Virus record (IMG/VR): IMGVR_UViG_3300036770_007034
Coordinates: 23,060-87,059 of that record
Reading direction: 5' to 3' (one strand)
Length of the DNA: 64,000 nt
Source: a virus
Part shown: one piece after another, positions 21,222 to 55,513 of the stretch
How positions within the stretch are numbered: the first letter of the stretch is position 1
Layout of the letters: every line of letters starts with the position of its first letter
Notes under the pieces: generated by a model
The model's database searches: none
What the model was told of the DNA's origin: nothing
Seen by the model: only the letters and a program-made list of their open reading frames with translations
Translations under genes and position numbers: made by a program

Positions 21222-21314
21222 GCTATAAAATCAGTAAATGACGCCTGCGGTAATCCGCTTTACTAACATAAGTAAATGTTAGAACGCCGTTTTTTATAGC
21301 GTTGATGAATCAAC
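21222..21314 (+). promoter_or_regulatory. Candidate structured cis-regulatory RNA, copy 1 (GACGCCT/TTTACTA/AACGCCG motif)
   Basis: Closing stem GCTATAAAA/TTTTATAGC encloses GCGG/CCGC and CTAACAT/ATGTTAG hairpins; followed by a GTTGAT/ATCAAC hairpin, AAGGGA and ATG; matches copy 2 at 55434-55513. Confidence 0.65.
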
Positions 21315-21335
21315 TAATTCAAAGGGATAGATGGA

Positions 21336-22313
21336 ATGACATATTCAACCGGATCAGTAATACTAGATGACGACTATAATATTTTTGCCACAGGTAATGC
21401 TGCCGGTACTGGCGATAACAATGTCGCAAACGTAAACACCGTATGGGGAGTTGGAAATGGCGATAAAGGATATGGTCAGACTACTCTTCCGGTTCTCAGC
21501 GCAGTATCCGCAGGACAGACAGTGACAGCTACACAATGGGCTACCATGCTGAATCGTATCTCTTCAGCCGCCAGCCAGCAAGGATCTTCGATTACCGGCA
21601 TCACTAACCCTGTAGCAGGCGACACAATTAGTGCTTATGCCGCTCTTTCAACTAACATCACGACAATCTACAACAACCGCTTGAACTGTGCCGCTGTAGG
21701 ATCATCGATCACTTCGGGCGGTAGTACAGATCGTACTACATCTTGGGCTACATCGGTGACATTTACACAGACGGTGACATTCGCAAGTGGCGATGCCGCT
21801 CGCTACTTTTTCAACGCAGGTGGACGTATCACACAGACGTGGAGTCGCTCAGGCGGTTCTGTGAACGACCAAAATACAGCTATCACTAACCTATGTACAG
21901 CTTGTGGTACGCTGAACTACACAGCAGGTACTGGCACACAGACCATCGCCGGCAGTAGCTACACAGGTACTACCAAGACCGGTGGTTCTGGTTCGCCCAC
22001 AGTGGCAACGACCACAGGTTACTACGATTACACCACTGCCAACGTGCAGGTATTCACGCAATCGGCCAGTTCTTACTACGGTTATGAAGGCAACTCAATC
22101 ACTGTCAACATCCTGACCAACGGTACCCAGGGTTCCAATGCTGACACAGGATCGGTGATCACTATCTACTCTACTGTAGCAAAAGGTGGTGGGTTGACCA
22201 CAGTTGACGGTACTCTAAACTCTACTATCACACTGATCCCCAGCTCGACGACATATCTTACCACGACCAGTTGGGGTACACCTACATTGGCTGGATCACA
22301 ATCCGGATCGTAA
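21336..22313 (+). CDS. Thr/Ser/Gly-rich tail fibre-like virion protein
   Basis: 325 aa, very T/S/G-rich, with GYGQ and ARYFFNAGG motifs; last gene before a terminator. Confidence 0.6.
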   Translation: MTYSTGSVILDDDYNIFATGNAAGTGDNNVANVNTVWGVGNGDKGYGQTTLPVLSAVSAGQTVTATQWATMLNRISSAASQQGSSITGITNPVAGDTISAYAALSTNITTIYNNRLNCAAVGSSITSGGSTDRTTSWATSVTFTQTVTFASGDAARYFFNAGGRITQTWSRSGGSVNDQNTAITNLCTACGTLNYTAGTGTQTIAGSSYTGTTKTGGSGSPTVATTTGYYDYTTANVQVFTQSASSYYGYEGNSITVNILTNGTQGSNADTGSVITIYSTVAKGGGLTTVDGTLNSTITLIPSSTTYLTTTSWGTPTLAGSQSGS

Positions 22314-22331
22314 TCGAAGATTTTGGAGAAC

Positions 22332-22359
22332 AAAAAGGGCCTCAGGGCCCTTTTGTTTT
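22332..22359 (+). terminator. Rho-independent terminator (possibly bidirectional)
   Basis: AAAAGGGCC-TCAG-GGCCCTTTT followed by GTTTT. Confidence 0.85.
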
Positions 22360-22370
22360 GCTACATACTC

Positions 22371-22379
22371 TGTTATAAT
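22371..22379 (+). promoter_or_regulatory. Extended -10 element (TGnTATAAT), probably giving a leaderless transcript
   Basis: TGTTATAAT 6 nt upstream of ATG 22385, immediately after the terminator. Confidence 0.5.
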
Positions 22380-22384
22380 GGAGT

Positions 22385-22699
22385 ATGAACTTGGATCCAG
22401 AACAAATAGTCAAAGAGATCAAAAGCCGTTTTGATCATGCCACGCAGAAGAAACTGCTCCGCGAAAAATATCACTCTAAGATGACCTTCGCCCATGCTGG
22501 CGGTATGTGGAAAGCCGGTCCGGAGTTGCTGACATTACTGCATGCTTGCCCAGTAGAGGATTCTGTAGTGATCGAAGACCTCTATGGCAATCCTGTAAAG
22601 ATCAACCCATTGGAGCTACAGCATCTTGCACATGGTCGCTGGCAAGAGCAGATGACTGCCTGGTTGTGCGAACTTGAAGAGTTGAGCCGTAATCGATGA
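22385..22699 (+). CDS. Hypothetical protein (possible fibre-assembly associated)
   Basis: 104-aa ORF with ATGA coupling to the next gene. Confidence 0.6.
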   Translation: MNLDPEQIVKEIKSRFDHATQKKLLREKYHSKMTFAHAGGMWKAGPELLTLLHACPVEDSVVIEDLYGNPVKINPLELQHLAHGRWQEQMTAWLCELEELSRNR

Positions 22700-23517
22700 C
22701 CCGAGGCGCAGTACTGTTTGCTTTCAACAATGATCGCGTGGACTACGTGAGCCAAGCGCAATGGTCTGCACCTCGCATCAATCGTCATCTAGGATTGCCT
22801 GTGACCTTGGTAACAGATGTCATGCCTGATGATGTTAGTATGTTTGATCAAGTGATTATCCGTGAAAGTCGCAGTGGCGGTACTAGGAAATATGATCACA
22901 TGAATGCTGACTCATCCGCTAACTGGTATAACCGCGGTCGATGTTCGGCCTATGATGTTACTCCGTATGACGAGACGTTGTTGCTAGACACAGATTACAT
23001 AGTAAGTTCCAGTCAGCTGTTGGCGTTGTTCAATGCTGACAAAGATATCCTATGCCATCGATACGTACTAGATGTCACTGACCGAAGAAACTTTGCCAGT
23101 GATACTAGATTCGGTGATGTAGAATTTCCCATGTGGTGGGCCACAGTCGTGTACTTCCGCAAGAGCAAGGCGGCCCAATCTGTGTTTGATATGATGCGCA
23201 TGATCGAAACTAATTGGTATCATTACAGTCGTATCTATAAATTCAATCAAGATCTCTATCGCAACGACTATGCTATCAGCATCGCACTGAACACTGTGTA
23301 CGGACATTTGCCTGACGCTGTGCCCAGCATACCCTGGCCTTTGTTCACAGCGTTTTATGATGTATATCTCAATCAATTAGATGATGATCGATTCCAACTC
23401 AATTACGTTCGCATGGCCGATCATCAAGAACGCCATCAGCGCATGATATTGGCAGACTGCGACCTTCATGTAATGAACAAACCCGACCTAGGAAAGATCT
23501 GTGGCAGTAGAATTTGA
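22696..23517 (+). CDS. GT-A fold nucleotide-sugar transferase-like protein (GT8-like)
   Basis: TPYDETLLLDTD (DxD), WATVVYF, RNDYA and C-terminal HVMNK. Confidence 0.6.
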   Translation: MTRGAVLFAFNNDRVDYVSQAQWSAPRINRHLGLPVTLVTDVMPDDVSMFDQVIIRESRSGGTRKYDHMNADSSANWYNRGRCSAYDVTPYDETLLLDTDYIVSSSQLLALFNADKDILCHRYVLDVTDRRNFASDTRFGDVEFPMWWATVVYFRKSKAAQSVFDMMRMIETNWYHYSRIYKFNQDLYRNDYAISIALNTVYGHLPDAVPSIPWPLFTAFYDVYLNQLDDDRFQLNYVRMADHQERHQRMILADCDLHVMNKPDLGKICGSRI

Positions 23518-24319
23518 ACGCGGCTATCTCATCATAGCACAGAATACTGATGCCACTGACTACATGGCCTGTGCTCGCGCATTGGCACGCAGTTTGCGTT
23601 GGCACATGCCCGACTGCAAGATATGTTTGGTCACTGATACTCCAGAGAGTGATCCGGTATTTGACATAGTCCGCCCGTTGCCGTTTGGAGATCAAAAAGG
23701 ATGGGCCAATGACTGGCAAGTGTTCGCAGCCACACCATTCCGAGAAACCATCAAGCTAGAAGCAGACATGATAGTGACCAATGATATTAGCCACTGGTGG
23801 GCATGGTTTGAACATCGAGACGTAGTGATCAGTCATGGCATGAGGAACTATCTCAATGAGTCCAGCGAGTGTCGTGCTTATCGGCGCATGTTTGATGACA
23901 ACGATCTACCAGATGTCTACAATGCCATCACGTATTGGAGGCTCAGCCGCACTGCCGCTGAGTTCTGGCAGCTGGTGCGCACATTCTTTGAGCAGTGGTC
24001 CACAGTAAGGCAGACACTCAAATACTGCGACAATGTACCGGCTAATACAGACATGATCTATGCCATGGTGGCCAAGTACATGGGCACAGAACTAGTGACT
24101 CTGCCCGCGGCCTGGCCCACGATCACGCACATGAAACCTGCTGTGAATTACCTAAAGACAGATGCACGTCCATGGAACGATGAATTCGTCTGGGAATTAG
24201 TGTCCGGAGATTTCCGTATCAACACAGTATCGCAACAAGACATCGTGCATTATCAAGAAAAAGCATTTGCTAAACCATTAGAGGAACATTATGGACGCCT
24301 TCTGGCAAGCCGTCGCTGA
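23501..24319 (+). CDS. GT-A fold nucleotide-sugar transferase-like protein, paralogue of 22696-23517
   Basis: TPFRETIKLEAD, YNAITYW, NTDMIYA and THMK motifs align with the preceding ORF; GTG start. Confidence 0.55.
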   Translation: MAVEFERGYLIIAQNTDATDYMACARALARSLRWHMPDCKICLVTDTPESDPVFDIVRPLPFGDQKGWANDWQVFAATPFRETIKLEADMIVTNDISHWWAWFEHRDVVISHGMRNYLNESSECRAYRRMFDDNDLPDVYNAITYWRLSRTAAEFWQLVRTFFEQWSTVRQTLKYCDNVPANTDMIYAMVAKYMGTELVTLPAAWPTITHMKPAVNYLKTDARPWNDEFVWELVSGDFRINTVSQQDIVHYQEKAFAKPLEEHYGRLLASRR

Positions 24320-24641
24320 ACACGATTGGGTTCAACCCGAGATACGTCAGGAATTTCGATTGTACTATGATACCCAAGACGGTCGTGTGCTGTTTTACAG
24401 CATGGAAGATGTTCCTGGGGATTATCTAGTGATTGACCGACACACGTTCGAACTGCATCGATTTGATATCAAAGTCAAGGATGGTAAAATCATCCGAGTG
24501 AAACACCCTGCTAGTTGGAAATTGGTGCCAGCAGACTCTGGTGAATATGCTTGTCATCCTCAAGACATTACCCTAATAGTACCACCAGCATCGGCACAGA
24601 AACAATACTGGAAAGTGGAGACCACACATGAAGAAGATTGA
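24291..24641 (+). CDS. Hypothetical protein
   Basis: 116 aa with GAGGA SD; overlaps both neighbours. Confidence 0.6.
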   Translation: MDAFWQAVAEHDWVQPEIRQEFRLYYDTQDGRVLFYSMEDVPGDYLVIDRHTFELHRFDIKVKDGKIIRVKHPASWKLVPADSGEYACHPQDITLIVPPASAQKQYWKVETTHEED

Positions 24642-25557
24642 TGTAGCAGATCTAGACTGCATCTACTTGAGCTATGACGAACCTCAGAAAGAAGAGTTCT
24701 GGGTCAAGATACGAAACATGGTACCTTGGGCCAAACGAGTAGATGGCGTCAAAGGGTCAGATGCCGCACACAAGGCCGCTGCTGAGGCCAGCGAAACAGA
24801 TCGCTTCGTCCTTATTGACGGAGACAATATTCCGCAAGAAAAGTTCTTCAATCTCACATTAGAGTTTCCAGATGAGAGCTGGGAGCAGGCTACGTTCCGT
24901 TGGCGAGCCCGCAATCACATCAATGGATTGATGTACGGCAATGGTGGATTGAGTTCATGGACGCGAGACTTTGTGCTCAACATGAAAACACACGAAAACA
25001 CTGACGGTAAAGATGAGACCGTGGTTGAGTTTTGTTTCGATCCACTATACTGGCCCATGCACGATTGTTATAGCACTACCTACCCTAACGGATCACCTTT
25101 CCATGCCTGGCGTGCCGGCTTCCGAGAAGGCGTGAAGATGTGTTTAGATCGTGGCCGCAAACCTTCGGTATCGGAGTTCAAAGACAGTGTACACAAACGC
25201 AACTTTGATCATCTCACTATCTGGCATAATGTAGGATCTGATGTAGAGAATGGGTTCTGGGCCATAGCTGGCGCCCGCCAAGGCACATATATGACCATGT
25301 TGAGCGATTGGGATTACAGAGAAGTACAGTGGTTTGATACCTTAGAGAAGATCTGGGAGTCCACAGTGGCCAATCAAGATCCAGCCGGGGTGATTGACTT
25401 CTACCACGAACCCTTGAGTACACGACTTGATTTACCCATGGCATTCATGCCTCCGTTCCAGAGCGCATTTTTCAAAGATCATTATCGTAGCAACTGGCAC
25501 AACCGCGGAGTGATGACTCGAGAAATAGATGTGATAAGGCAGCAAGAAGGATGGTAA
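24628..25557 (+). CDS. GT-A-like protein (phage glycosyltransferase-like family)
   Basis: YLSYDEP...RVDGVKGSDAAHKAAA...LIDGDN (DxD)...NGLMYGNGG...AWRAGFREGVK; homologous to the C-terminal domain of 40721-42328. Confidence 0.55.
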   Translation: MKKIDVADLDCIYLSYDEPQKEEFWVKIRNMVPWAKRVDGVKGSDAAHKAAAEASETDRFVLIDGDNIPQEKFFNLTLEFPDESWEQATFRWRARNHINGLMYGNGGLSSWTRDFVLNMKTHENTDGKDETVVEFCFDPLYWPMHDCYSTTYPNGSPFHAWRAGFREGVKMCLDRGRKPSVSEFKDSVHKRNFDHLTIWHNVGSDVENGFWAIAGARQGTYMTMLSDWDYREVQWFDTLEKIWESTVANQDPAGVIDFYHEPLSTRLDLPMAFMPPFQSAFFKDHYRSNWHNRGVMTREIDVIRQQEGW

Positions 25558-26537
25558 ATGTCAGAGTGATATCCAGTGATTGCAAAGTTTGGAATCGAGA
25601 TCAAGTCATCGTAGAAATCGGCCATGCTATGTCTATCAATGAAGATATTACTATAGATCTCATAAGCGAGGGTCCGTGTTTTACTTCGTTGGAACTGAGC
25701 GAGTCGATCTCTCTGATGAGATCGTTGTATGACTATCAAAAAGATATATCAGTAAAGACCTGTAATCTGTCTCAACAAAGATGCGACGGATTCCAATTTG
25801 ATGTCCAACCTCCCACACATTTTATAAAGAATACCAAAGATAAGTTATCTAAAAATACCCAGACAAAACATCTTACTAAAAAGTTTGGATTGTTTATTGG
25901 CAGATCTAATGCACCTCGACTTGATCTGGCCAGTTATATTTGGAAAAATCACAAAGAAGACACCGTGATGACCTATCATTTTGATACAGAGATAGACTAT
26001 CACAGAAACAATATTGGATTAGATGACTTAGTCAGATGGCAAAACACCAAAGATTTGCTTGACGCAGTTGATTTGATAAAGTCATCGCCACTGAAGTTTG
26101 AGGAAGTGAGATATCCTATACTCATGGACCAGCATTGTGATATCAGTCGGTTGTCAAAAGATTTTTTGATAGAGGTAGTGTGCGAAACATATTATACCGG
26201 AACAACTTTTTTCCCTACAGAAAAAATATGGAGGCCGATCATGTCCGGATCTCCGTTTATTGTGCAAGGACCGAGATATTTTTTGCACAAACTAAGAGAT
26301 CTTGGATTCAAGACATTCGATAAATGGTGGGACGAAGGATATGGCGAAGATCCAGCCGCCTGGCAAATAACAGAAATAAAAAAAGTGATAAGTCATATCG
26401 CTTCTTTTGATTACGACACTATACAAAAATGGTATCAGGAGATGATTCCATTGTTGGATCATAATCGCAAAAGATTTTTAGAACTGAACAAAAAAGATTT
26501 ATCTTCTATCTACAAGGATTTATCAAAGTATGATTGA
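25551..26537 (+). CDS. Glycosyltransferase-like protein (ET...TEK...KPI...GF-x-TF family), paralogue 1
   Basis: EVVCETYYTGTTFFPTEKIWRPI...PFIVQG...LRDLGFKTFDKWWDEGY, reminiscent of the GT10 donor-binding motif. Confidence 0.5.
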   Translation: MVNVRVISSDCKVWNRDQVIVEIGHAMSINEDITIDLISEGPCFTSLELSESISLMRSLYDYQKDISVKTCNLSQQRCDGFQFDVQPPTHFIKNTKDKLSKNTQTKHLTKKFGLFIGRSNAPRLDLASYIWKNHKEDTVMTYHFDTEIDYHRNNIGLDDLVRWQNTKDLLDAVDLIKSSPLKFEEVRYPILMDQHCDISRLSKDFLIEVVCETYYTGTTFFPTEKIWRPIMSGSPFIVQGPRYFLHKLRDLGFKTFDKWWDEGYGEDPAAWQITEIKKVISHIASFDYDTIQKWYQEMIPLLDHNRKRFLELNKKDLSSIYKDLSKYD

Positions 26538-27960
26538 TCAGAACAAAGGCGACGAAGTCGCGGCTGATTTCAAGTCTAAATTTCTCAGTGATGCTGAGAT
26601 AATGAAACAACGTCTGGACTCGGTAAGTCCCAGTATGTGTCTAGCCAAATGGAAACAGGTCAGCCTTCATCTTACTACAGGACATACCAACTCCTGCTAT
26701 CATCCCCCGTTGCATCGTATACGCATTGAGGATATACAGCGCGGTGGTATCGGACTTCACAATACTGAGCACAAGAAACAGCAACGGAAACTCATGATGG
26801 AAGGTACCAGGCCCTCTGAGTGCCAGTATTGCTGGAACATGGAAGACAACGGCAAGCTCAGTGATCGCCATTACCGGTCGGGCGAACCCTGGGCCGCGAA
26901 AGATTTTGAACGGATAGTCAGCGCAGATTGGAGCCAAGATGTTTTACCAAGTTATGTTGAAGTCAATTTTAGTCATGCTTGTAATCTCGCCTGTAGTTAT
27001 TGCAGTCCTCAGTTTAGTAGCACGTGGCAACAGGAAGTTGAACGGCATGGCAGCTACCCCACTTCGACGCCTCATAATGATCCCGATTATTTTCGCGGCG
27101 AGCGTCGCCCTATTCCTAGTCGTGAAGCAAATCCTTACCTAGAAGCTTTCTGGGAATGGTGGCCCACGCTGTATCCAGAACTTGAGCACTTCCGCATGAC
27201 CGGTGGTGAGCCTATGATGGACAAGAACACCTTCCGGGTGTTTGATTATGTGCTGATGAACCCTAGTCCTAAACTGCATCTCAATGTCACGAGCAATTTC
27301 TCTGCAGATGAGAAACTGTGGCAACGCTACAAAGGCTATGTAAAGATGCTGTGCGACGGAGAAAAGATCGAACACTTCATGCAGTACGTGAGCCTTGACG
27401 GTTGGCTTGACAAAGCCGAATACATGCGCCACGGCCTGGACTTTGGGTTGCTATGGAATCGAGTGAATGAGTTCTTGAGCGAGATACCCGGGCGTAGCAG
27501 TCTGACATTCATCATCACTATGAACAATCTGTCGGTGACAAGTTTTGAACAGCTCATGGTCGCTGTGCTGGGATTGAGACAGATCTATTCAAACACATAT
27601 CAGCGGGTGTGGTTTGATACTCCTGTGCTCCGTACTCCCAGTTGGCAGAGCATGCAACTGTTGCCGGAGAGCTATGTAGAGAAACTGGAAGCTGTGTGGG
27701 TCTGGATGATGAAGAACATGGAGACCGAAGAAAAGCGTTTCAAAGGTTTCAAAGACTATGAACTACAACGTCTGGATAGAGATATCGCCTGGATGCGAGA
27801 CGGACAGAAATTAGAGCCCGACTATATCAAACGGCAAAAAGCCGACTTCTATAGATTCTTTGCAGAGCATGACCGTCGTCGTGGTACTGATTTCCTAAAG
27901 ACATTTCCTGAAATGAGTGCTTGGTGGGCAGAGTGTCAATATCATGCCAACAACGATTGA
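26530..27960 (+). CDS. Radical SAM enzyme with N-terminal Twitch/SPASM-like Cys cluster (1)
   Basis: CNLACSYC (CX3CX2C) and TGGEP; N-terminal MCLAKW...SCYH...CQYCW. Confidence 0.9.
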   Translation: MIDQNKGDEVAADFKSKFLSDAEIMKQRLDSVSPSMCLAKWKQVSLHLTTGHTNSCYHPPLHRIRIEDIQRGGIGLHNTEHKKQQRKLMMEGTRPSECQYCWNMEDNGKLSDRHYRSGEPWAAKDFERIVSADWSQDVLPSYVEVNFSHACNLACSYCSPQFSSTWQQEVERHGSYPTSTPHNDPDYFRGERRPIPSREANPYLEAFWEWWPTLYPELEHFRMTGGEPMMDKNTFRVFDYVLMNPSPKLHLNVTSNFSADEKLWQRYKGYVKMLCDGEKIEHFMQYVSLDGWLDKAEYMRHGLDFGLLWNRVNEFLSEIPGRSSLTFIITMNNLSVTSFEQLMVAVLGLRQIYSNTYQRVWFDTPVLRTPSWQSMQLLPESYVEKLEAVWVWMMKNMETEEKRFKGFKDYELQRLDRDIAWMRDGQKLEPDYIKRQKADFYRFFAEHDRRRGTDFLKTFPEMSAWWAECQYHANND

Positions 27961-45226: not shown

Positions 45227-45232
45227 TGCTGT

Positions 45233-45261
45233 ATTTTAGCAGAGTTACGAGGTTTGGTCAA
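45233..45261 (-). promoter_or_regulatory. Sigma70-like promoter TTGACC-N17-TAAAAT
   Basis: Exact 17-nt spacer and TG extended -10; embedded in the thyX 3' end. Confidence 0.7.
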
Positions 45262-45919: not shown

Positions 45920-45921
45920 GT

Positions 45922-46230
45922 TTATCCTTTGAGTTTGTTTAGAAAATGATCGGTGATAGGCTGTACATGCTGGGCCACGGAGCGTACATCGATAACGAAA
46001 TCAATATTCACTATAGATCTTCCTAGCTCGTTCATGGTGCGAGATACCACTGACTCTATTTCTTCAATGTCAAGACCATTCCTGCGCAGGGTTTCGAGAT
46101 TGATGGTCTTCTGGCGGTTGCCACGGAGTTTGAATACGACTTTTTTTACGCAGTCGATGGGGATGTTTTCTTTATCAACGCTAGAGACAACATCCTCCCA
46201 TTTTTCTATTTCATCAACCCTGAGCTGCAT
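45922..46230 (-). CDS. Hypothetical protein
   Basis: ATG 46230 with AAGGTGG upstream; coupled to neighbours. Confidence 0.6.
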   Translation of the reverse strand: MQLRVDEIEKWEDVVSSVDKENIPIDCVKKVVFKLRGNRQKTINLETLRRNGLDIEEIESVVSRTMNELGRSIVNIDFVIDVRSVAQHVQPITDHFLNKLKG

Positions 46231-46921: not shown

Positions 46922-47121
46922 TCTCCTTGTGTTTGGGGGCTTTCACCGGTGTTTTCGGCACTGGCGGTCATCTGTGCTAACCAAGCAGTGAGTCGGTCAT
47001 AACAACCGCCCACGTTGGACATCTCTTCGGCCCTGAAAGCCCCACGCTCGCAGGCCACTGACACGGCATTCTTGAGAATGATGAGATCCGACAGAGATAG
47101 ATTCACGGTTTGATTTTCCAT
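46918..47121 (-). CDS. Small hypothetical protein (CERGAFRAEEM motif)
   Basis: 67 aa preceded by GTAAATA; ATGA-coupled. Confidence 0.65.
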   Translation of the reverse strand: MENQTVNLSLSDLIILKNAVSVACERGAFRAEEMSNVGGCYDRLTAWLAQMTASAENTGESPQTQGE

Positions 47122-47167
47122 GCATTTATTTACGCCGTGAGAAGATATCTACGCATATTATCGCCAC

Positions 47168-47196
47168 AAAAAAACCGCCTTAGCGGCGGTTTTCTT
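47168..47196 (-). terminator. Rho-independent terminator after the VWA gene
   Basis: Minus strand AAAACCGCC-GCTAA-GGCGGTTTTTTT. Confidence 0.85.
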
Positions 47197-47223
47197 GTAG
47201 GGTATGGAATCGATTTAGCCGAA

Positions 47224-48501
47224 TTATGCCTGCTCTTCGTATAATGCCCAAGTACCAAAGGGCGGATTAGGATTACGATCACCATGGATGATCCATACCG
47301 TGTCGCAATAGTGTTCATCGCCCCACGACCCAAACGGATAACCGTCTGTGAACACTACCAGGCGCTTGGGTTCGATCTGTTCATCCTTGAGATGATGGAA
47401 TATAGCATCAAAGTCGGTACCGCCGCCGCCCTGGAGATCATACTCAAGTATGGAATCCAAGTTGTCGGAATTGAAATCCTGTGGGTTATACACTTGGGTA
47501 TCGAACGTGAACAGGTGGATACGATAACTGTCAAATGCCTCCATGATGCCTCGGACTTCGCTCAGGAAGTCTCGACCCTGTATATCAGAGATCGAACCAC
47601 TCATGTCGATAGCGATAGCAATATCAATGGCTTCGGTATTGCGCATACCTGGCATGACTGCATCCATGTGCCATCCGCGACGGCTGGTCTTCATCCAGGT
47701 ATAATCACTCTTGATCGTTGACTCCAATTGCATTCGGAGCAGTTCGCGCCAGTTCATCTTGGGATCAGTGAGATCCTGGATCATGCGTTTCACGCCAGCT
47801 GGAATATTGCCTGCATCACTTGCCTGTGCCGCGGCTAGCATGGCTTCCTTGATCTCGTCCTTGATCTTCTGGCGCTCTTCGGCACTGAGCTTGGGACGGC
47901 CTTTACCATTTTTGCCATCACCATCGCCCTCGCCTTGGCTATCGCCATCCAAGTGCTCGTCTAACACTCGATCTAAGAGATCTGCAAGACTGATCTTTTC
48001 GGCGTTCTCATAGAGATCGTCATAGACTTCTTCGGAACTCTTGCCTTCGTATTTCTGATCATAAAGGCAAGGCACTGACGTGATGAACTCGCCCACACGG
48101 TGTTTCTTGAGATCGCCGTTGACACAAAAGTCATTGGCGATGTTCCAGAGTTGAGGATCGCGATCTCCTCTGCGACCAAAGTGGTCATACACACAATGCA
48201 AAACCTCGTGTCCAAACAGGAACTCAATCTCTTTGGGTTTCAGCATCTCGATGAAACGAGTATTGTAATAGAAGTGGCGACCATCTGTAGCGGCCGTGGA
48301 GCACCATTCATCGGCATTGATCAGTTTGAGTCGGGTAGCCAGGTTGCCAAAGAAACTGGCACGGAGCAACAGACCCACACGGGCGGTGACCAATTTTTCA
48401 CGAACCACGCGATCCAGTTTGGGATCGGTGGGGCCCAAGAGATCAGCGAACTTTTTGGCGTCGTCTTTGTTCTGGGTATTAGCGGCAGTTGCAGTTGTCA
48501 T
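47224..48501 (-). CDS. Metallopeptidase-VWA domain protein (DUF2201-like)
   Basis: TAATDG, GHEVLH (HExxH), IDMSGS (MIDAS), GGGGTDF and FTDG. Confidence 0.88.
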   Translation of the reverse strand: MTTATAANTQNKDDAKKFADLLGPTDPKLDRVVREKLVTARVGLLLRASFFGNLATRLKLINADEWCSTAATDGRHFYYNTRFIEMLKPKEIEFLFGHEVLHCVYDHFGRRGDRDPQLWNIANDFCVNGDLKKHRVGEFITSVPCLYDQKYEGKSSEEVYDDLYENAEKISLADLLDRVLDEHLDGDSQGEGDGDGKNGKGRPKLSAEERQKIKDEIKEAMLAAAQASDAGNIPAGVKRMIQDLTDPKMNWRELLRMQLESTIKSDYTWMKTSRRGWHMDAVMPGMRNTEAIDIAIAIDMSGSISDIQGRDFLSEVRGIMEAFDSYRIHLFTFDTQVYNPQDFNSDNLDSILEYDLQGGGGTDFDAIFHHLKDEQIEPKRLVVFTDGYPFGSWGDEHYCDTVWIIHGDRNPNPPFGTWALYEEQA

Positions 48502-48524
48502 GGATTCTCCTAACTATATCTATT

Positions 48525-48553
48525 ATTATACCGTTTTTGCATTTATTGGTCAA
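48525..48553 (-). promoter_or_regulatory. Early sigma70-like promoter GG-TTGACC-AATAA..N17..TATAAT
   Basis: Consensus -10 with 17-nt spacer; upstream of AGGAG SD and the VWA gene. Confidence 0.85.
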
Positions 48554-48896
48554 CCGGGTATTTCAGCTGGAAAAGCGTGAGTTCTTGCGGGCTTTTCACG
48601 TAGATACGCAGGTCATCATATCCGTTGGTCCATGACCAGTAAGGATTCACAGCACCGGGCATTTCGGGCAAAGGGTTGGCTCCGACGTACATGTAAGGAT
48701 TAGAGTAATGTTTCTGGATATCCGACCACAAGCGTATTTCGGCACTCCAGCCATAGGTGTCAAAAAAGTATTGTTGGGCGACGGAAAAATTCTGCGGCCC
48801 TTTCCAATTGGTCATGCGATTGGAAAAGATTATGGCATATTCAAAATGCTGACGGTAGCTCCACCGTCCATCGAGTCGGACTATCTTGTATTTCAT
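48543..48896 (-). CDS. Small hypothetical protein (C-terminal FQLKY)
   Basis: 117 aa; ATGA-coupled. Confidence 0.6.
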   Translation of the reverse strand: MKYKIVRLDGRWSYRQHFEYAIIFSNRMTNWKGPQNFSVAQQYFFDTYGWSAEIRLWSDIQKHYSNPYMYVGANPLPEMPGAVNPYWSWTNGYDDLRIYVKSPQELTLFQLKYPVDQ

Positions 48897-49126
48897 CTTG
48901 AGTATTTAAGCCCGAATATCATGGCATCATTGGGATCGCGGAAAAAGAACTCCAATACCCAGACATTGTCATCTATGGTACCTATGTCAGGGCTACGATA
49001 GTACCACCGACCCTTGTCTCGTCCGAAATCTCGATAGACTTGGACTAGGAATTCTTGTACATCGTCGTGATCGTAGGGATCGAAAGTGATCCGTACGCTG
49101 TGAAAAGGTAGGGTGGGATCCGACAT
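48893..49126 (-). CDS. Small hypothetical protein (C-terminal FGLKY)
   Basis: 77 aa between the AAA gene and 48543-48896. Confidence 0.6.
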   Translation of the reverse strand: MSDPTLPFHSVRITFDPYDHDDVQEFLVQVYRDFGRDKGRWYYRSPDIGTIDDNVWVLEFFFRDPNDAMIFGLKYSR

Positions 49127-49168
49127 AGCCCTATGTCCCTCTCGGTATGGACCCCACCCTGTTGACTC

Positions 49169-50263
49169 TTAGGAGTTCTGAGAGGCTTGCAGGATGTACT
49201 TGCCGTACCGCTGATGGAACTCATCAAAGTTCTTGAGCTTGGTAGGCTGGAACGGCAGATTGTACGTGGTAAGCGCGATACGAGCACCCATCACCACAAG
49301 CTCAGTCTCAAAGTTATCCATCATGTAGCGGAAGAAATTATCCGACATAGAGTGGAACTCAGTGTCCTTGACCTTGCGCTCGATGGCATTCTTGAGCTCG
49401 TAGCACATGGAGATCACTAGGCTGTACATGGCTGAAACTTCTTTGACCTGTAGGTCCTTGACTTTGCCACTGAGGATCTCTTCGGGCTTGGGCATCTTGC
49501 TGGCGATCTTACGATGCGCCTGGAACTTCACTGCCAAGCCCTCGCCTACAGCACCCGCCACAAGATCGGTCAGAGTGTTCTCGTCGGTATCTTCGTCTTC
49601 CAACAGCTCGCTGACGAAAGTCCAAGAGCGTGGAGTAGCGAAAGAGCGGCTGGCACTCTTGGCATCGAAGTCGTAGAGGTCCTGCTTGGCGAAACTGAGA
49701 TAGCCAACCACGTCTTTATGAATGCCATTGTTCACGGCCCATTCTTGCCACACCGGAAAGTCTACTCGCATCTCCAAGTGTACGAAGCGGTTAGCCAGCG
49801 GAGTTGGCATGCGATATGTGACACCTTTATCGCTCTCGCGGTTGCCCGCGGCGATCATGACCACATTATCGGGTAGAACATACTTGCCCACACGACGGTT
49901 CAGCACCAGCTGATAGGCCGCACTCTGCACAGCCGGGGGAGCCGAATTCATCTCGTCCATGAACAAGACTACGATAGGATACTGGCTAGCAGTCTCTTCG
50001 TCGGGCAGTTCCACAGGAGGAGCCCAGTCCATTTTGCCGATCTCTTTGTTATAGAACGGGATACCACGGATGTCAGTTGGGTCCATCTGGCCGAGGCGCA
50101 GGTCGATCATCAACCCACCCAGGCTTTCAGTGATACCGGCAACCACTTCGGATTTACCGATGCCGGGAGGACCCCACAGGAACAACGGACGCTTCTTGGC
50201 GAAGCACTTCATGATCGATTTGCGGGCACCAACCGCGGTTACGGTGCGATGTTCTACGGACAT
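49169..50263 (-). CDS. MoxR/AAA_5-type AAA+ ATPase
   Basis: Walker A GPPGIGKS, Walker B LFMDE, AAGN and PLANRF. Confidence 0.92.
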   Translation of the reverse strand: MSVEHRTVTAVGARKSIMKCFAKKRPLFLWGPPGIGKSEVVAGITESLGGLMIDLRLGQMDPTDIRGIPFYNKEIGKMDWAPPVELPDEETASQYPIVVLFMDEMNSAPPAVQSAAYQLVLNRRVGKYVLPDNVVMIAAGNRESDKGVTYRMPTPLANRFVHLEMRVDFPVWQEWAVNNGIHKDVVGYLSFAKQDLYDFDAKSASRSFATPRSWTFVSELLEDEDTDENTLTDLVAGAVGEGLAVKFQAHRKIASKMPKPEEILSGKVKDLQVKEVSAMYSLVISMCYELKNAIERKVKDTEFHSMSDNFFRYMMDNFETELVVMGARIALTTYNLPFQPTKLKNFDEFHQRYGKYILQASQNS

Positions 50264-50301
50264 AGGGCTCTTCCTTTTGGTTGTTTACTTACTGTTCTAT
50301 T

Positions 50302-50330
50302 ATTGTAAGATATCTGGGTTTATTGGTCAA
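50302..50330 (-). promoter_or_regulatory. Early sigma70-like promoter TTGACC-N17-TACAAT
   Basis: Same GGTTGACCAATAA start as 48553. Confidence 0.8.
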
Positions 50331-50331
50331 C

Positions 50332-50589
50332 CTAGCAGTATTCATAGAACCGGACCTTGGGATCAAGTTTCCGGAGCTGGTCAGCACAACGAGTAAGTTC
50401 GCGATAACGAGCCTGCACCTGCGAGCGGCTCAGTTCACCATCGCAAGTGAGGTTCTCTGGACTGAGCTGGCTGTCGATGCTGTCGGCGATCTTTTGGCGA
50501 TCAGCGGCTGAGCTGAGATCCAACGGCTTTTTACCAAAGATCTTGGCAAATTGATTCTGACGTTCTACGAAGTTTTTTAGGTCTTTCAT
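50332..50589 (-). CDS. Small early phage protein (LSPENLTCDGE motif)
   Basis: 85 aa with AGGAG SD; flanked by promoters. Confidence 0.75.
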   Translation of the reverse strand: MKDLKNFVERQNQFAKIFGKKPLDLSSAADRQKIADSIDSQLSPENLTCDGELSRSQVQARYRELTRCADQLRKLDPKVRFYEYC

Positions 50590-50621
50590 AGTAGGGCTCC
50601 TATGATGTTTACGATTCTGTT

Positions 50622-50650
50622 AGTATAACAAATAGCGAAATAATGGTCAA
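50622..50650 (-). promoter_or_regulatory. Early sigma70-like promoter TTGACC-N17-TATACT
   Basis: 17-nt spacer and TG extended -10. Confidence 0.8.
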
Positions 50651-50748
50651 CCATCGTCCCGGACTTAGGCATTTACTGTTGTTTTTACACAACACACCCT
50701 GGTTGACGGCCGGGGCAGGAGATATACTGTTTTTACTAGCATATCTCT

Positions 50749-50777
50749 ATTGTACGGAAATGGGAATTATTGGTCAA
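50749..50777 (-). promoter_or_regulatory. Early sigma70-like promoter TTGACC-N17-TACAAT
   Basis: GGTTGACCAATAA start and 17-nt spacer. Confidence 0.8.
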
Positions 50778-50781
50778 CCTA

Positions 50782-51711
50782 CTAGAAATCCACGCTTTCC
50801 AATCTGACTAAGAAACTGGTACGACGTTTGGTAGAATTATCGAGCTGGACTTGGTGCCAACAAGCCGGCGCCCACATGCGTAGTTCTTCGCTGAAAGTAT
50901 TTCCAGGAAATATAACTCCTTCGCTGGCCATCAAACGATGTCCTATCTCAACAGGTTCTGATTTTTTCAGCATATAAGTATCATCGAGATAATCTCTTAC
51001 ATGAAGCCCGGGCTCACTTTCATACAGTACCGCAGTCATCATGGATCCATCTATATGAGTATCGAGTATGGAGTTCATTTCTGGATGCCATCGATAGTCG
51101 ACGATTCTTATGGTAAGTCGTTTTTCAAATCCGGTAAGATCTACTCCTTTGGATTCGCAAACTTCTTTCAGGAATTGGTGCATCTTAGGGATCAACGAAT
51201 GAAGTCTTGACATCAATTCTGGGTTTTTAGTTTTGCTAAGATCAGATGCCATCTGCACCTGAGTCCATAACATCACATCTCGATAATAATGGCCGGTTAC
51301 TCCGTGCGTGGGTTCTTCGATCTCCCATATCCGGCTCTGATAAAATTCAATAAATTCTTCTATGTCTTTTTTGACCGGGGCGATATCAAAAAAGAAATAA
51401 GGCTTTTTGGGATCTGGAAACAGACCGCAGGGCCGATTGAAATATTCATAATCGTAATTCTGATCTACCGACACATTTTGATATCCATGACGGATCAGAG
51501 TGTCTGCGGCTCGTTCTGCGTAGCTCGGAGGCCCTCCATTGTCTACGATGACTAGTTCAGTGCTGTGATCAATACCAGAAAAGGTTTCCAGGATCTGCGC
51601 CTGGGTGGCATTGATTTTTTTATCGGATCGAGGAGATACGATGATGGGGATCGGAAGGTGTAGATCGTAAGGTACTTCTTTTCGAGGATTTATACTGATG
51701 TTCACTCTCAT
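50782..51711 (-). CDS. 2OG-Fe(II) oxygenase (IPNS-like), possibly with a degenerate rhodanese-like N-terminus
   Basis: THIDGSMMT (HxD), CWHQV and RRTS (RxS); N-terminal AERAADTLIRHGYQNV. Confidence 0.65.
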   Translation of the reverse strand: MRVNISINPRKEVPYDLHLPIPIIVSPRSDKKINATQAQILETFSGIDHSTELVIVDNGGPPSYAERAADTLIRHGYQNVSVDQNYDYEYFNRPCGLFPDPKKPYFFFDIAPVKKDIEEFIEFYQSRIWEIEEPTHGVTGHYYRDVMLWTQVQMASDLSKTKNPELMSRLHSLIPKMHQFLKEVCESKGVDLTGFEKRLTIRIVDYRWHPEMNSILDTHIDGSMMTAVLYESEPGLHVRDYLDDTYMLKKSEPVEIGHRLMASEGVIFPGNTFSEELRMWAPACWHQVQLDNSTKRRTSFLVRLESVDF

Positions 51712-52844
51712 GATAGTGCTTCCTTCATATGTTGATAGAGGTATTCTAACTCTTCTTCGGATGTGTTTAGTGGTAGCATCAATCTGATGCTATCTCCTAA
51801 ACTCCGAGTTACCAATACTCCGTGCTCATAGCATGATCTCCATGCTTGTTCTGCTGTGAGATTTTTTAGATCTATCGCGACCATGTGTCCGTTGAATCGC
51901 ATAGCCTCTACTGTTGAAAGATCAGATAGATCGGAAAGATGGACTTTCACTGCACGGCGTGCCCGATTGAGATTTATAGTGGGTAGGATATCTAATACAC
52001 GATTAGCTACCGCACAACTCAATGCTGTGCCACCATACGTAGTACCGTGTCTCCCTAACACAAAATTATCTTTGAACAAACATGCCGATAGCGGCAGACC
52101 ATTAGCAAGTCCTTTGCTCAAGATCAGTATGTCAGGATCCAATCCTAGCTCTTTCATCACGCTGGGACCGCCGCATCTATAAAACCCGCACTGGCATTCA
52201 TCTGCTACGATGATGCATCCTGCTTGTTTGGCCCTATGATAGATATCAACTAACCAAGATTCTTCCAGTGCTCGACCGCCGCCCATGCCTAACACAGGTT
52301 CGATCAATACTGCCGATATGTTTTCAAAGTCGATATCATCGACGTTTGTATCTGCTGAAATGTGTATGGGATCGATGAAGCGTTTTTGTAGAGTTTCGTA
52401 AGTTCCGGGCCATTGGGTGATCATGGTCGTGATCAGACTGGTTCCATGGAAAGCACGATCTACGGTAGCTATCGTTCCAGGACGATTCCAAAGAGATATC
52501 TTGAGTGCCAGATCCATGGCCTCGCTACCAGTGGCATGGAAAAACACTTGATCCATGCCCGTGATATGACAAAGTCGTCGGGCTAATCTATCTCTTTCTA
52601 CTTCTCTCAATTGATTGCTGACTTGCCATAGATCAGAGACCTGCTGTTGGGCCACCTTCACTAGTTCAGGTTCGCAATGGCCCAACAGGTTTGACCCTAC
52701 TCCGTTTATGGCATCGAAATACCGACGGTCTTGGTCATCCCAGAGCCATACGCCTTGACCGCGTATGAACTCTGAGTCAAATCTCTGATAAAACGGGGTC
52801 AGCATGGGATATTGATAGGTTCTCTCTTTTGGCTGAATATCCAA
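51708..52844 (-). CDS. Class III PLP aminotransferase (ArgD/ornithine aminotransferase-like)
   Basis: RGQGVWLWD, LGH, TGSEA, AFHG, IEPVLG, DECQCGFYRCG, LSKGLANG and HGTTYGG. Confidence 0.9.
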   Translation of the reverse strand: MDIQPKERTYQYPMLTPFYQRFDSEFIRGQGVWLWDDQDRRYFDAINGVGSNLLGHCEPELVKVAQQQVSDLWQVSNQLREVERDRLARRLCHITGMDQVFFHATGSEAMDLALKISLWNRPGTIATVDRAFHGTSLITTMITQWPGTYETLQKRFIDPIHISADTNVDDIDFENISAVLIEPVLGMGGGRALEESWLVDIYHRAKQAGCIIVADECQCGFYRCGGPSVMKELGLDPDILILSKGLANGLPLSACLFKDNFVLGRHGTTYGGTALSCAVANRVLDILPTINLNRARRAVKVHLSDLSDLSTVEAMRFNGHMVAIDLKNLTAEQAWRSCYEHGVLVTRSLGDSIRLMLPLNTSEEELEYLYQHMKEALS

Positions 52845-54250
52845 CTGAACACAAAGCTACCTAGGATAGCGATCAGTGTTCCTGTCAGGGCGATATCGGT
52901 GTTCTTGATCAAGCTGCCATACACAAAGGTCGGGATCCCTAGGATCAAGGCCAACAACATTCCTTGGAACAGACCTTTTTCAGTGAACCATTCTGGACGC
53001 AACACAGCGACCATGCTGGGCAGCCAAACACTGGCTCTCAGTGTGGCAAAGAACAGGAAGATATGCAACAGCGTGATTCCAGGAATAAACGCTATCCCGA
53101 TTCCCAGCACAGCCGCGATCACCATACCCCAACGTGCATAACTGATACTGGTCTGATCAGCGTCATCTGTTTTGAACTTCTTATAGATATCATGTCCTGC
53201 CATGCTGGCTACAGAAGAGAATTGGCTATCCAGCACTGATATGAGTCCAGCAAAAACAACGAACACGAACAGGATGCTGACCCAGCTAGGTAAGTATTGT
53301 GCGATCATGAATGCGTTGACCATCTGCTCTTGTCCTTTGGGTACCACGAGTTGGCTTCCTGCGGCCAAGAATCCCAACAGCCCCATGGCGATAGGAATCA
53401 CACCGTATATGATCGACCCTTGGGCGAACACACGGAACACGCTTTTCTTTGGTACAGAAAATGCTCGCTGATAGAATGCATTGTCTCCAAAAAATGCACC
53501 CATCTGGCCTAAGAACGTGGCCAGACCAAAAGTCACAAACACCACCCAGGCTTTGTCTGTACCGATGATCGATCCACCATCACCTTTGATACCGCCCAGT
53601 CCAGCTACCACTGTGTCCCATCCGTTGGTCACTGCCATCACGGAACCCACGATGAGTAATACTCCGAACCATACCATGATGATCTTGAATATCTCAGTGA
53701 TCACTGACGCTTTGAGTCCGCCACGGAAACTGTACAGCAAAGCGATAGCGGCCATCACAGGCACAGTCACGTAATAGTTCAAGCCAGTCAATAGTTCAAC
53801 GATTTTACCACCGGCCAATAGATTCAGTGCAAACACGCTCACGGCCAGCACTACCATCTCGAAGATGTAGATGTTTTGTACACGAGTGCTATACGTTTCT
53901 TTGATATAACTGGAGAATGTGAATCCATCAGGATAACGATCACGAAGTTTCTGTGCGAACCAGCCAAACAGCCAGTAGGTCAAGATGGCTCCGAATGAGA
54001 ACCAAAATAGTCCTACCAGTCCGTTGACATAGGCCTGCTGTGCGCTGATGAATAATCCAGCGGCCCAGAGCCACGCAGCCGCTACACTGAGGCTACCTTG
54101 ACCAGTAGACAGATCTCGCCGGCTCAGTAAGAATGCTTCTTTGGTCGAAGCATACCCTCGGCTGAAGTAACTGGTCAGTCCGTATACCACTAAGGCATAC
54201 ACCGCCAGGATGATGACCCCCATCATGGGGTCAAATAAGGGAAGTTGCAT
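52799..54250 (-). CDS. Sodium:solute symporter family transporter (DUR3/PutP-like)
   Basis: About 13 hydrophobic segments; SVAAAWLWA, YSFRGGLKASVITE, FYQRAFS and AGLISVLDS. Confidence 0.85.
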   Translation of the reverse strand: MQLPLFDPMMGVIILAVYALVVYGLTSYFSRGYASTKEAFLLSRRDLSTGQGSLSVAAAWLWAAGLFISAQQAYVNGLVGLFWFSFGAILTYWLFGWFAQKLRDRYPDGFTFSSYIKETYSTRVQNIYIFEMVVLAVSVFALNLLAGGKIVELLTGLNYYVTVPVMAAIALLYSFRGGLKASVITEIFKIIMVWFGVLLIVGSVMAVTNGWDTVVAGLGGIKGDGGSIIGTDKAWVVFVTFGLATFLGQMGAFFGDNAFYQRAFSVPKKSVFRVFAQGSIIYGVIPIAMGLLGFLAAGSQLVVPKGQEQMVNAFMIAQYLPSWVSILFVFVVFAGLISVLDSQFSSVASMAGHDIYKKFKTDDADQTSISYARWGMVIAAVLGIGIAFIPGITLLHIFLFFATLRASVWLPSMVAVLRPEWFTEKGLFQGMLLALILGIPTFVYGSLIKNTDIALTGTLIAILGSFVFSWIFSQKREPINIPC

Positions 54251-55406
54251 TTACGATCTCCTTTGGTTGTCGTTGATAACTCTTCATCAGATATTTTTTA
54301 CCACCGATGGTAGGTAATGCGGTACCAGAGTTATATTTGGGTATGATGTCGTGATTTAGAGCATCGACACCTCTGATGAATTTCTTGAATACGTCCTGAT
54401 CTGAACGTCGATTGTGATCGACTAGTCTACGGCTTTCTCCTCGAGTAACGAAATCACCGCGCCAGTCATTCACATATTTTTTGTACATGGCCATCTCATG
54501 TGGCAAACATTCTCTGCCCAAGGCTAGATTATAATCTCTATAGGCTTGATCACCACAGGCTGAGCTCTGGTTGAAGTGCAAGAACTCGTGACTGAAATTG
54601 TCTAGTTTCTCATAGAAATTCACGGCCATCCAGCATTGTTTGACATAAAGGTCTGGCATGTCATAACTGATATAGAAAGGTTCAGCATGATCACTGAGAC
54701 TGTAATCCCATATCGCGAAAGCATCCCAGATCTGTGCATAGAAGTTGCCTTGATAAAAGTCGAGGCTGGGTTTTTCTTTGCCCATGATCCAGGCACTGTT
54801 CTTCTTGTTCTGCTCTCTATCTTGGATGTAATCAGGATTGAACCTTTCTAACAGATAGATAGCCTGGCTTTTACCCATGAGGTGATTGTTGGTATAGTAT
54901 ATCCATTCATCACCAAGTTCCCGATACACCTGCGCGATATCATCCTGGGTATATCGTGGAGCGAAAATCTCCAGCCAGGGTTGATGTTCCTTTTTCACAT
55001 AATGTGCGAATTCGATACTGGGACCCCAGTCATAACTGTTATCGTAATATTCTTTCACGAAGCATATGATGCGATCCAACCGTATCTTGTGTTTGAGGAA
55101 TGTCAATAATATAGCATGGCTATCGTAGCCTCCGCTGTACATCAGACTGAGATGGTCGTATTTTTCACGCAGTTGCAAACATCTGGCCAGCATGAGTTCA
55201 TCCCAGGATTGAGAAGGCTCTTTGGTCCAGTCCACCTTATCCCATGCAGAATCATGCCAATGGAAGTGTATGCGATCACGATCGCCCTGGGCTTTTTGCA
55301 AAGCTTCGACCTTGCTCCAGGTACGCTCTCCATTGACTTCATACCAGACTTCGTTCTTTCCGGTGAAATCATTGAAGTTGTGACCAAACTGATTCTTTAT
55401 GCTCAT
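54231..55406 (-). CDS. PP-loop (adenine nucleotide alpha-hydrolase fold) enzyme
   Basis: LMYSGGYDS (SGGxDS); ATG 55406 preceded by AGGAG. Confidence 0.7.
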   Translation of the reverse strand: MSIKNQFGHNFNDFTGKNEVWYEVNGERTWSKVEALQKAQGDRDRIHFHWHDSAWDKVDWTKEPSQSWDELMLARCLQLREKYDHLSLMYSGGYDSHAILLTFLKHKIRLDRIICFVKEYYDNSYDWGPSIEFAHYVKKEHQPWLEIFAPRYTQDDIAQVYRELGDEWIYYTNNHLMGKSQAIYLLERFNPDYIQDREQNKKNSAWIMGKEKPSLDFYQGNFYAQIWDAFAIWDYSLSDHAEPFYISYDMPDLYVKQCWMAVNFYEKLDNFSHEFLHFNQSSACGDQAYRDYNLALGRECLPHEMAMYKKYVNDWRGDFVTRGESRRLVDHNRRSDQDVFKKFIRGVDALNHDIIPKYNSGTALPTIGGKKYLMKSYQRQPKEIVNATSLI

Positions 55407-55433
55407 GGCTCTCCTGTACAATGTTCTGTGCTG

Positions 55434-55513
55434 GATGCATGAGCATCTACGGACCGGCGTTATAGGCGTTTCACGCTAGTAAAGGAGTTTCACTCCAGGC
55501 GTCGTTGAGTCCG
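55434..55513 (-). promoter_or_regulatory. Candidate structured cis-regulatory RNA, copy 2
   Basis: Minus strand CGGAC-TCAAC-GACGCCT-GGAG TGAAA CTCC-TTTACTA-GCG TGAAA CGC-CTAT-AACGCCG-GTCCG, then a GATGC/GCATC hairpin and AGGAG-ATG. Confidence 0.65.

Follow-up and report, generated by a model that had tools for sequence, protein, structure and literature searches.

Few phage-borne regulatory RNAs are known ahead of host-like genes, and they are little understood. The manA and wcaG motifs (RF01745 and RF01761), riboswitch candidates of T4-like cyanophages in the available text of Weinberg et al. (2010, PMC2864571), have remained orphans since 2010. PeSL (promoter-early stem-loop) cassettes of T4-type phages are described in the available text of Comeau, Arbiol and Krisch (2014, PMC4122927). 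Moreover, a catalogue of structured RNAs from IMG/VR contains, according to its available text, 8,495 unnamed candidates, 879 of which lie no more than 25 bp ahead of a gene with known domains (Fremin, Bhatt and Kyrpides 2023, PMC10690425). In this study, we analyzed a 64,000-nt stretch of viral DNA, hereafter the window (positions 23,060 to 87,059 of the 87,059-base IMG/VR record IMGVR_UViG_3300036770_007034, 23% complete by CheckV), which possesses two copies of a structured leader RNA. Both belong to a single folded-RNA family, widespread and uncatalogued, of giant T4-type phages from uncultured samples, and they represent different architectural forms of it. The full RNA of ~105-125 nt follows a T4-type late promoter and consists of an invariant GCA, hairpin P0, the 5' strand of helix P1, an A-rich linker, a three-way-junction core, at least two letters, the 3' strand of P1 (P1'), UA, hairpin P4 and an invariant AGC.

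The leader RNA shares with manA and wcaG, as the available text of PMC2864571 describes them, a conserved structure, a distribution almost confined to phage and metagenomic DNA, T4-like carriers, a likely location in 5' untranslated regions and an association with host-like auxiliary genes. However, scans of both copies and of the best members of the family, with E values up to 10 admitted, gave no match to either motif. The leader RNA is distinguished by its late-promoter-coupled scaffold and its three-way-junction core, by the genes behind it, which encode solute-binding proteins, porins and TauD-like enzymes, and by its carriers of ~330 kb, which are not cyanophages as far as seen, whereas manA and wcaG are found in cyanophages. 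PeSL cassettes are likewise short units of promoter and structure in front of variable, often host-like cargo, and a possible point of exchange, but they combine an early (sigma-70-type) promoter with a terminator stem-loop and recur in many copies per genome across hyperplastic regions (available text of PMC4122927). The leader RNA, in contrast, is a multi-helix RNA of 105-125 nt with an invariant junction, follows a late promoter, is not associated with a terminator, and is found in one or two copies per genome. Identity with PeSL cassettes was rejected, given the late promoter [A/C]TAAATA, the lack of a terminator and the single match in each of the five genomes searched.

Three-way-junction riboswitch aptamers, for example those of the purine and guanidine-I classes, are compact junctions with invariant unpaired letters, covarying stems, a short closing P1 adjacent to the regulated region and occasional tandem arrangement. 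The leader RNA has the same features of junction, stems, P1 and tandem arrangement, Rfam scans being the comparison made here. It differs from them in matching no Rfam family, in its unconserved loops, which indicate no loop-loop lock, in the lack of any detected terminator or platform sequestering the ribosome-binding site, and in having no clear bacterial members.

The leader RNA may be among the unnamed candidates of PMC10690425, the main text of which makes no mention of late promoters, solute-binding proteins, transporters or riboswitches. A paper on pelagimyophages (PMC7029224) mentions late promoters and riboswitches, in its available text, only as none found. We found no description of the leader RNA in the literature. 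No match to copy 2 or to the best member, locus L212, was obtained among 50,697 GenBank phage records by blastn ('distant' setting, with the sensitivity of blastn and not of a model search), and positions 19000-24000 of the window gave none by megablast. New here are the anatomy of scaffold and insert, the core-only and type-B forms, the putative twin helix, the single-copy syntenic placement and the searches for an expression platform and for bacterial copies.

The letters and coordinates of the two copies (Table 1) are exactly those of an earlier note made from the window sequence alone, except that the RNA of copy 2 extends ~20 nt further 5', where GCA and P0 are located. The pattern GACGCC..TTTACTA..AACGCC was found at these two places only in the window, with 0 matches in 100 shuffles, and likewise in the whole record. 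A covariance model, R1, which was built only from the copies of other phages, detected copy 2 in the window with 78.5 bits (E 5.3e-18, model positions 1-123) and copy 1 with 37.7 bits (E 9.1e-8). R1 found no further copy in the window, the next best place of which scored 10.9 bits (E 0.47), nor in the whole record. Chance similarity of the two copies is ruled out by the pattern shuffles and the R1 scores. The three helices differ in sequence between copy 1 and copy 2 and keep their pairing, and extensive compensatory changes are displayed by the homologues as well. Each copy is followed by one extra hairpin, a purine-rich stretch and an ATG. The helices and the parts that follow them agree with the earlier note, which had also spoken of conserved loops. 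That description is wrong in part: within TTTACTA, UUUA alone is unpaired, and the CUA forms a stem with UAG in the family and covaries to CUG/CAG and CCA/UGG. The folding energy of copy 2 is unremarkable (z -0.88; 34 of 200 shuffles fold as well) and that of copy 1 is moderate (z -2.63; 3 of 200), so the case for structure rests on comparison and not on thermodynamics.

The earlier note did not recognise the RNA as a known family, and the Rfam 15 scans agree. At gathering scores the whole window gave 23 matches, all of which are tRNA or tmRNA at 57.6-64 kb, and none at either copy. When matches up to E 10 were admitted, both copies gave only noise, with a best score of 18.1 bits against a gathering score of 70, and 10.9 against 34 for Fluoride; L212 had 0 matches, and locus L205, which belongs to the type-B form described below, had 2 noise matches. 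Membership in any Rfam 15 family was rejected from the scans of the window, both copies, L212 and L205. The self-cleaving ribozyme classes (hammerhead, twister, twister-sister, pistol, hatchet and HDV-like) gave no match at E up to 10.

Homologues were collected by two scans of IMG/VR, and the counts of family members, promoters and downstream genes given here come from the matches listed by the two scans and are lower bounds. The first scan required an exact match to the three 7-mers shared by the copies and returned at least 119 loci. About 44 of its listed matches, judged by eye and script, contain both hairpins together with extra conserved flanks. The 5' flank comprises an ATAAATA resembling a late promoter, then GCAACGCC, a hairpin and GACGUCGG, and the 3' flank comprises CCGUA, a hairpin and AGC. 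The second scan used the late promoter and the 5' hairpin only, blind to the core, and returned at least 120 loci with at least 108 distinct instances. RNAalifold on the initial MAFFT alignment recovered P2 alone because the other stems were misaligned, and the structure was then set by hand on a cleaner alignment. This alignment, A2, consists of 35 diverse members aligned by MAFFT and was not fitted to any structure; the five-helix structure written on it served for R1. A total of at least 151 matches to R1, at least 127 of them distinct, were found in IMG/VR loci. The window and the second-scan loci account for 103 matches. Another 48 come from 47 of the 119 listed first-scan loci; in the remaining 72 the pattern matched by chance.

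In A2, 87.4% of 898 cells are standard pairs, compared with 32.7-48.7% when the partners are slid by 1-3 columns. Double changes are present in 18 of 26 pairs, and the covariation score was reached by 0 of 500 shuffles. In the model-fitted alignment A3, which comprises 86 distinct rows and is biased in favour of the structure, the paired fraction rises to 93.7% of cells, and double changes are seen in 25 of the 26 pairs. Among paired cells G.U (45) is commoner than A.C (18), which is what folding of the gene-sense strand would predict. A repeat acting at the DNA level or independently of orientation is not favoured, given this excess and the same-strand open reading frames (ORFs) downstream. 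What was found is a conserved, folded, aptamer-like RNA, as would be expected of a riboswitch, supported by covariation and containing invariant unpaired letters.

The conservation is unevenly distributed over the leader. The 5' GCA is present in 86 of 86 rows of A3, and the A, G and C of the 3' AGC in 86, 84 and 85 of them. The base of P0 is ACGCC/GACGY with a conserved C.A mismatch, and its upper stem covaries, with pair variants in A3 of AU 68 / GC 16, GC 40 / AU 39 and GC 47 / AU 22 / CG 13. P1 is composed of CGG/CCG and 0-2 further pairs (3-5 bp), the fourth pair being formed in 40 of 86 rows. The core is made up of GACGCY-U, P2, UUUA, P3 and AACGCC, with nearly invariant junction letters, freely covarying stems P2 and P3 and variable loops. 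GACGC, UUUA and AACGCC are kept in 68-71 of the 71 distinct type-A leaders listed, which were collected by promoter and P0 only, and stem letters and loop lengths vary freely in the same 71. P4 displays double changes at all 5 pairs. The letters preceding GCA and those following AGC were also considered as a possible closing helix, which was rejected, as no covariation was found beyond invariant GC/GC. Between the RNA and the start codon lies an AU-rich spacer of ~20-90 nt, with a median of 34 nt from the end of P4 to the start.

The core is portable, since it is found alone in copy 1 and in loci L006 and L105, in tandem in L017 and L134, and replaced on the same scaffold by another insert in type B. 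Copy 1 lacks P0, has no late promoter directly upstream, is enclosed by a P1 of its own and is followed by a hairpin unlike that of copy 2. In L006 and L105 a homologous gene of 323-325 aa is preceded by the same core-only form, whose P2 and P3 show compensatory changes. In the tandem leaders (L017, 3978-4193 (-); L134, 121-307 (-)) two cores share one scaffold and are enclosed by a single P1, with one 5' and one 3' strand. Type B, with at least 15 matches to a rough regular expression, keeps the scaffold and carries, in place of the core, a ~30-nt insert GACCUC...UUAAUGUCUUAAAUGCGUGGGCC with the flanks GACCU...GGGCC. Its loci are L123, L126 (a second site), L138, L159, L170, L172, L175, L176, L180, L182, L191, L204 and L205, and most type-B leaders precede a protein of 338-342 aa with weak radical SAM/SPASM matches.

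A variant P0 with AGGCC/GACCU instead of ACGCC/GACGU was found in L013, L016, L037, L056 and L075, and the P0 base is otherwise invariant. The GACG and the CGCC that bound the core probably pair as well, which would give a second helix like the P0 base, including its A.C mismatch; for copy 1, such a helix is drawn by RNAfold. The flanks of the type-B insert show the same G-C to C-G flip as the variant P0 at the equivalent position. Within type A the core-closing helix has no covariation support, because its letters never vary there.

The octamer TATAAATA is the late promoter of T4. It stands 7 nt before the GCA of copy 2, as the earlier note had seen. Among the genes of the record is one for a gp55-like late sigma factor (match to phrog_12791, 'sigma factor for late transcription', E 6.8e-77), adjoining genes for portal, prohead protease, baseplate hub and SbcCD-like proteins. 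The arrangement is that of a T4-type late unit, with the promoter just before the predicted transcript start. Among public runs, none with RNA is listed for window positions 54200-56000. Among the 41 distinct listed matches that were collected without requiring a promoter, 36 have [A/C]TAAATA 5-8 nt (12 in one case) before GCA, and the spacing is 5-6 nt in 30 of the 36. The five exceptions are a leader cut by a contig end, one with a variant P0 that the expression missed although the promoter is present, the second member of a tandem pair, and two core-only elements. ATAAATA is found five times in the window against 8.9 expected.

One R1 match each at E up to 0.01 was obtained in five genomes, of which four are near-complete (329-344 kb, 95-100% complete, with terminal repeats in G003 and G004) and the fifth measures 252 kb. 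In G001, G002, G005 and the window the leader is located at a syntenic site and heads the gene of F0, the 391-aa protein behind copy 2, with an AAA ATPase gene further on. F0 directly follows the leader in G002 and the window, and a binding-protein gene, F9, is inserted between the two in G001 and G005.

An ORF of at least 70 aa on the same strand was found downstream of 123 of the 127 distinct listed leaders; the other four lie close to a contig end (three within 120 nt and the fourth within 225 nt). The first ORF was chosen automatically (at least 70 aa, start from -25 to +350 of the model end), so some starts are possibly misplaced. The placement is that of a 5' untranslated region in sense orientation, in line with the earlier note, and copy 1 is intercistronic. 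The downstream proteins were grouped as blastp clusters, and the representatives were named by Pfam. Among the 123, binding proteins of four unrelated families are encoded behind 61 leaders, and together with porins behind 67. The families of the first gene are DctP with no room for a signal peptide (28), TctC (25), TauD-like (9), F0 (8), weak radical SAM/SPASM matches, all of type B (8, plus one more radical SAM), Porin_4 (6), the membrane protein DUF2061 (6), NMT1/OpuAC-like (5), fatty-acid desaturase (4), SBP_bac_8 (3), hexapeptide transferase (3) and the Thr/Ser-rich protein of copy 1 (3), and the remaining 14 are singletons and pairs.

We favour, with a probability of roughly 0.4, a reading of the RNA core as a riboswitch-like sensor domain for a small molecule or ion. 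The three-way junction would serve as the ligand pocket, and folding of the core would stabilise P1; as P1 is marginal (3-5 bp), core folding could set its stability. The stabilised P1 would in turn set the compactness or protection of the 5' end of the late message, and hence its lifetime and translation. The condition of the infected cell would then govern late expression of nutrient-capture proteins and, in this phage, also of the Thr/Ser-rich late protein. Whereas the family was observed together with its structure, position and gene neighbours, the ligand, the switch and this route to expression are inferred. Co-regulation by one signal of the Thr/Ser-rich late protein and the uptake operon behind copy 2, as proposed in the earlier note, is possible because both carry the same core. 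On a more tentative footing, the leaders could represent a phage-only riboswitch class, with a fixed scaffold GCA-P0-P1...P1'-P4-AGC welded to the late promoter and exchangeable sensor inserts. If so, the inserts (single or tandem junction, or type B) would read a host metabolite or alarmone in uncultured water bacteria and would decide late in infection on the making of nutrient-capture proteins and of the Thr/Ser-rich protein, perhaps a virion part. A modular scaffold of this kind would, if confirmed, be a new design principle. The family is large and clearly structured, has an unusually invariant junction, is tied to a late promoter and precedes nutrient-capture genes. It makes testable whether giant phages sense the state of the host before late spending on auxiliary genes, and what role phage binding proteins have without transporters.

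Several observations weigh against a sensor. No expression platform could be detected: downstream of P4 come AGC and AU-rich letters, with no U run or terminator, and the pairing probability between the window around the ribosome-binding site and the leader has a median of 0.046 and an upper quartile of 0.18 in predicted ensembles. A sigma-70-like pair (TTGAC-N15-19-TAnnnT) is present in 10 of the 123 listed leader-to-start spacers (L026, L098, L102, L112, L122, L140, L161, L013, L126 and L175), and some genes behind the leader may, judged from these motifs, also be expressed early without it. Most riboswitch classes have bacterial members, and here one core subtype (P2 = RGRGU...ACYCY) matched 2 of 185,579 species genomes, both matches being contigs of metagenome bins with a phage-type late promoter and P0, so that no clear bacterial copies are known from this search. 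The two contigs, L222 (CAIVYW010000332.1, Methylococcaceae bin, 380-470) and L223 (NZ_JBBAKG010000031.1, Haliscomenobacter bin, 1785-1880 (-)), contain the complete promoter and leader and may be phage DNA binned with bacteria. One has a DctP gene downstream and the other a gene for a signal-peptide protein; a PHROG scan of L223 gave a match to a ClpP-like protease only. The invariant ACGCC/GACGY helices, in P0 and probably at the base of the core, look like sequence-specific sites that would suit a protein, and the leader goes together with a promoter specific to phages. Related phages contribute orthologous loci to many of the 123 contexts, which makes the independent associations fewer than the counts, and the downstream genes have no evident common substrate and include desaturase, radical SAM, DUF2061, halogenase-like and Thr/Ser-rich proteins.

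The main rival, which we rate somewhat less probable than the sensor, is an operator bound by a protein or a trans-acting RNA, in which a phage late protein or a host protein would recognise the ACGCC/GACGY helix with its C.A mismatch and set the translation or decay of a small late regulon. It would account for a P0 base that is invariant apart from one concerted change (ACG/CGU to AGG/CCU, in five loci), for the same letters at the flanks of the core (GACGC...ACGCC), which are able to form the same mismatched helix, and for the same flip at the same position of the type-B flanks. A phage-only leader behind the phage's own late promoter, with no expression platform and with one match in each of the five genomes searched, conforms to it as well. 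However, no candidate protein partner was identified, copy 1 lacks P0 and thus has only one such helix, and the core-closing helix, never varying within type A, adds no covariation support. Moreover, the junction letters UUUA and the C(Y)U of GACGCYU vary no more than the helices do, a feature that a folded pocket would more typically show.

A constitutive leader of late messages is improbable in our view. Such a leader would be a folded cap that protects the 5' terminus against 5'-end-dependent decay or boosts translation, and a patch of homology for swapping cargo. Stem-loops at the 5' terminus do stabilise bacterial mRNA, and a stable hairpin lies 0-3 nt from the predicted transcription start here. 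Cargo differs at the syntenic site as described above (F9 or F0 directly behind the leader), and shuffling mediated by PeSL is documented for T4-like phages (available text of PMC4122927). But a stabiliser or patch needs neither a three-way junction nor at least 20 invariant unpaired letters across leaders with fully diverged stems, copy 1 keeps the core without the scaffold and away from the 5' end, and the leader stands at only one of the five ATAAATA sites of the window. Still less probable is that the RNA itself is the product, either a small late non-coding RNA cut at AGC or a self-cleaving ribozyme, with an incidental gene downstream. The single copy in each near-complete genome, the invariant ends GCA...AGC and the sigma-70-like promoters between RNA and gene would fit such a product, and an invariant junction core is typical of ribozymes too. 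Against it stand the strong enrichment of porins and of four unrelated families of solute-binding proteins directly downstream, the lack of a terminator after the RNA, the lack of a match to known ribozyme families at E up to 10, and the location of copy 1 between two genes of one operon.

Table 1. Positions in the window of the two leader copies, their parts and the adjacent genes.
Feature	Position	Strand	Description
ATAAATA before the 477-aa gene	19713..19719	(+)	candidate late promoter of the transcript carrying copy 1
477-aa gene	19769-21202	(+)	stop 20 nt before copy 1
Copy 1, core-only form	21222..21300	(+)	own 9-bp P1 GCUAUAAAA 21222-21230 / UUUUAUAGC 21292-21300; linker; GACGCCU 21240-21246; P2 GCGG 21247-21250 / CCGC 21255-21258; UUUA 21259-21262; P3 CUAACAU 21263-21269 / AUGUUAG 21276-21282; AACGCC 21283-21288
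Hairpin after copy 1	21301..21314	(+)	GUUGA/UCAAC, loop UGAA; kept in L006 and L105; then AAGGGA and ATG at 21336
325-aa Thr/Ser/Gly-rich protein	21336..22313	(+)	gene after copy 1; homologues after the core-only element in L006 and L105
Late promoter TATAAATA	55543..55550	(-)	T4-type; upstream of the GCA opening copy 2
Copy 2, full-length leader (R1 match)	55417..55537	(-)	conserved RNA from GCA at 55535 to AGC at 55430; final ~13 nt correspond to the AU-rich model tail
Copy 2, GCA and hairpin P0	55514..55535	(-)	GCA 55535-55533; P0 GCGCCGA 55532-55526 / UCGACGC 55520-55514; C.A mismatch 55529.55517
Copy 2, P1 and three-way-junction core (sequence and R1)	55450..55513	(-)	bounds of the earlier note; P1 CGGAC 55513-55509 / GUCCG 55454-55450, enclosing linker and core; GACGCCU 55503-55497; P2 55496-55484; UUUA 55483-55480; P3 55479-55462, last pair C.U (C-G in most members); AACGCC 55461-55456
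Copy 2, UA, hairpin P4, C, AGC	55430..55449	(-)	P4 GAUGC 55447-55443 / GCAUC 55438-55434; AGC 55432-55430
F0 gene after copy 2	54234..55406	(-)	391 aa, SGGYDS motif; ATG at 55406
SSF symporter	52802-54250		after F0; Pfam
Class III aminotransferase	51711-52844		after the symporter; Pfam
309-aa protein	50785-51711		after the aminotransferase; no family match

The operon behind copy 2 had been read in the earlier note as PP-loop protein, symporter, aminotransferase and oxygenase. Pfam bears out the symporter and the class III aminotransferase. The 391-aa and 309-aa proteins, named PP-loop protein and oxygenase there, and the 325-aa protein behind copy 1, named a fibre, have no match in Pfam, PHROG, NCBIfam or PDB sequences, and the SGGYDS motif in the translation is all that recalls a PP-loop in F0. 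The ATAAATA before the 477-aa gene is likely the late promoter of a transcript that includes copy 1 as an intercistronic element, judged from its sequence and position. Further upstream, ahead of the late genes leading up to copy 1, is a single ORF of 4,835 codons (4440-18947, (+)).

A conserved module was seen when window positions 47500-63500 were compared with L229, L230 and L233, the loci of G001, G002 and G005. Two small genes, F2 and F3, are located upstream of the leader, and F0, variable cargo, a MoxR-like AAA ATPase (49172-50263) and a DUF2201 metallopeptidase/VWA protein (47227-48501) downstream. In the DctP proteins behind the leader (L045, L047, L021 and 25 further loci), the Pfam match begins at residue 17-19, i.e. 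at the start of the mature domain. By their sequences these proteins seem to have no signal peptide, an unusual trait among periplasmic binding proteins. Apart from the promoter of copy 2, the window contains TATAAATA exactly once more (60652-60659, (-)), just upstream of a permuted tmRNA (60100-60545, (-)) on the 3' side of the tRNA array, and the tmRNA may be a late transcript.

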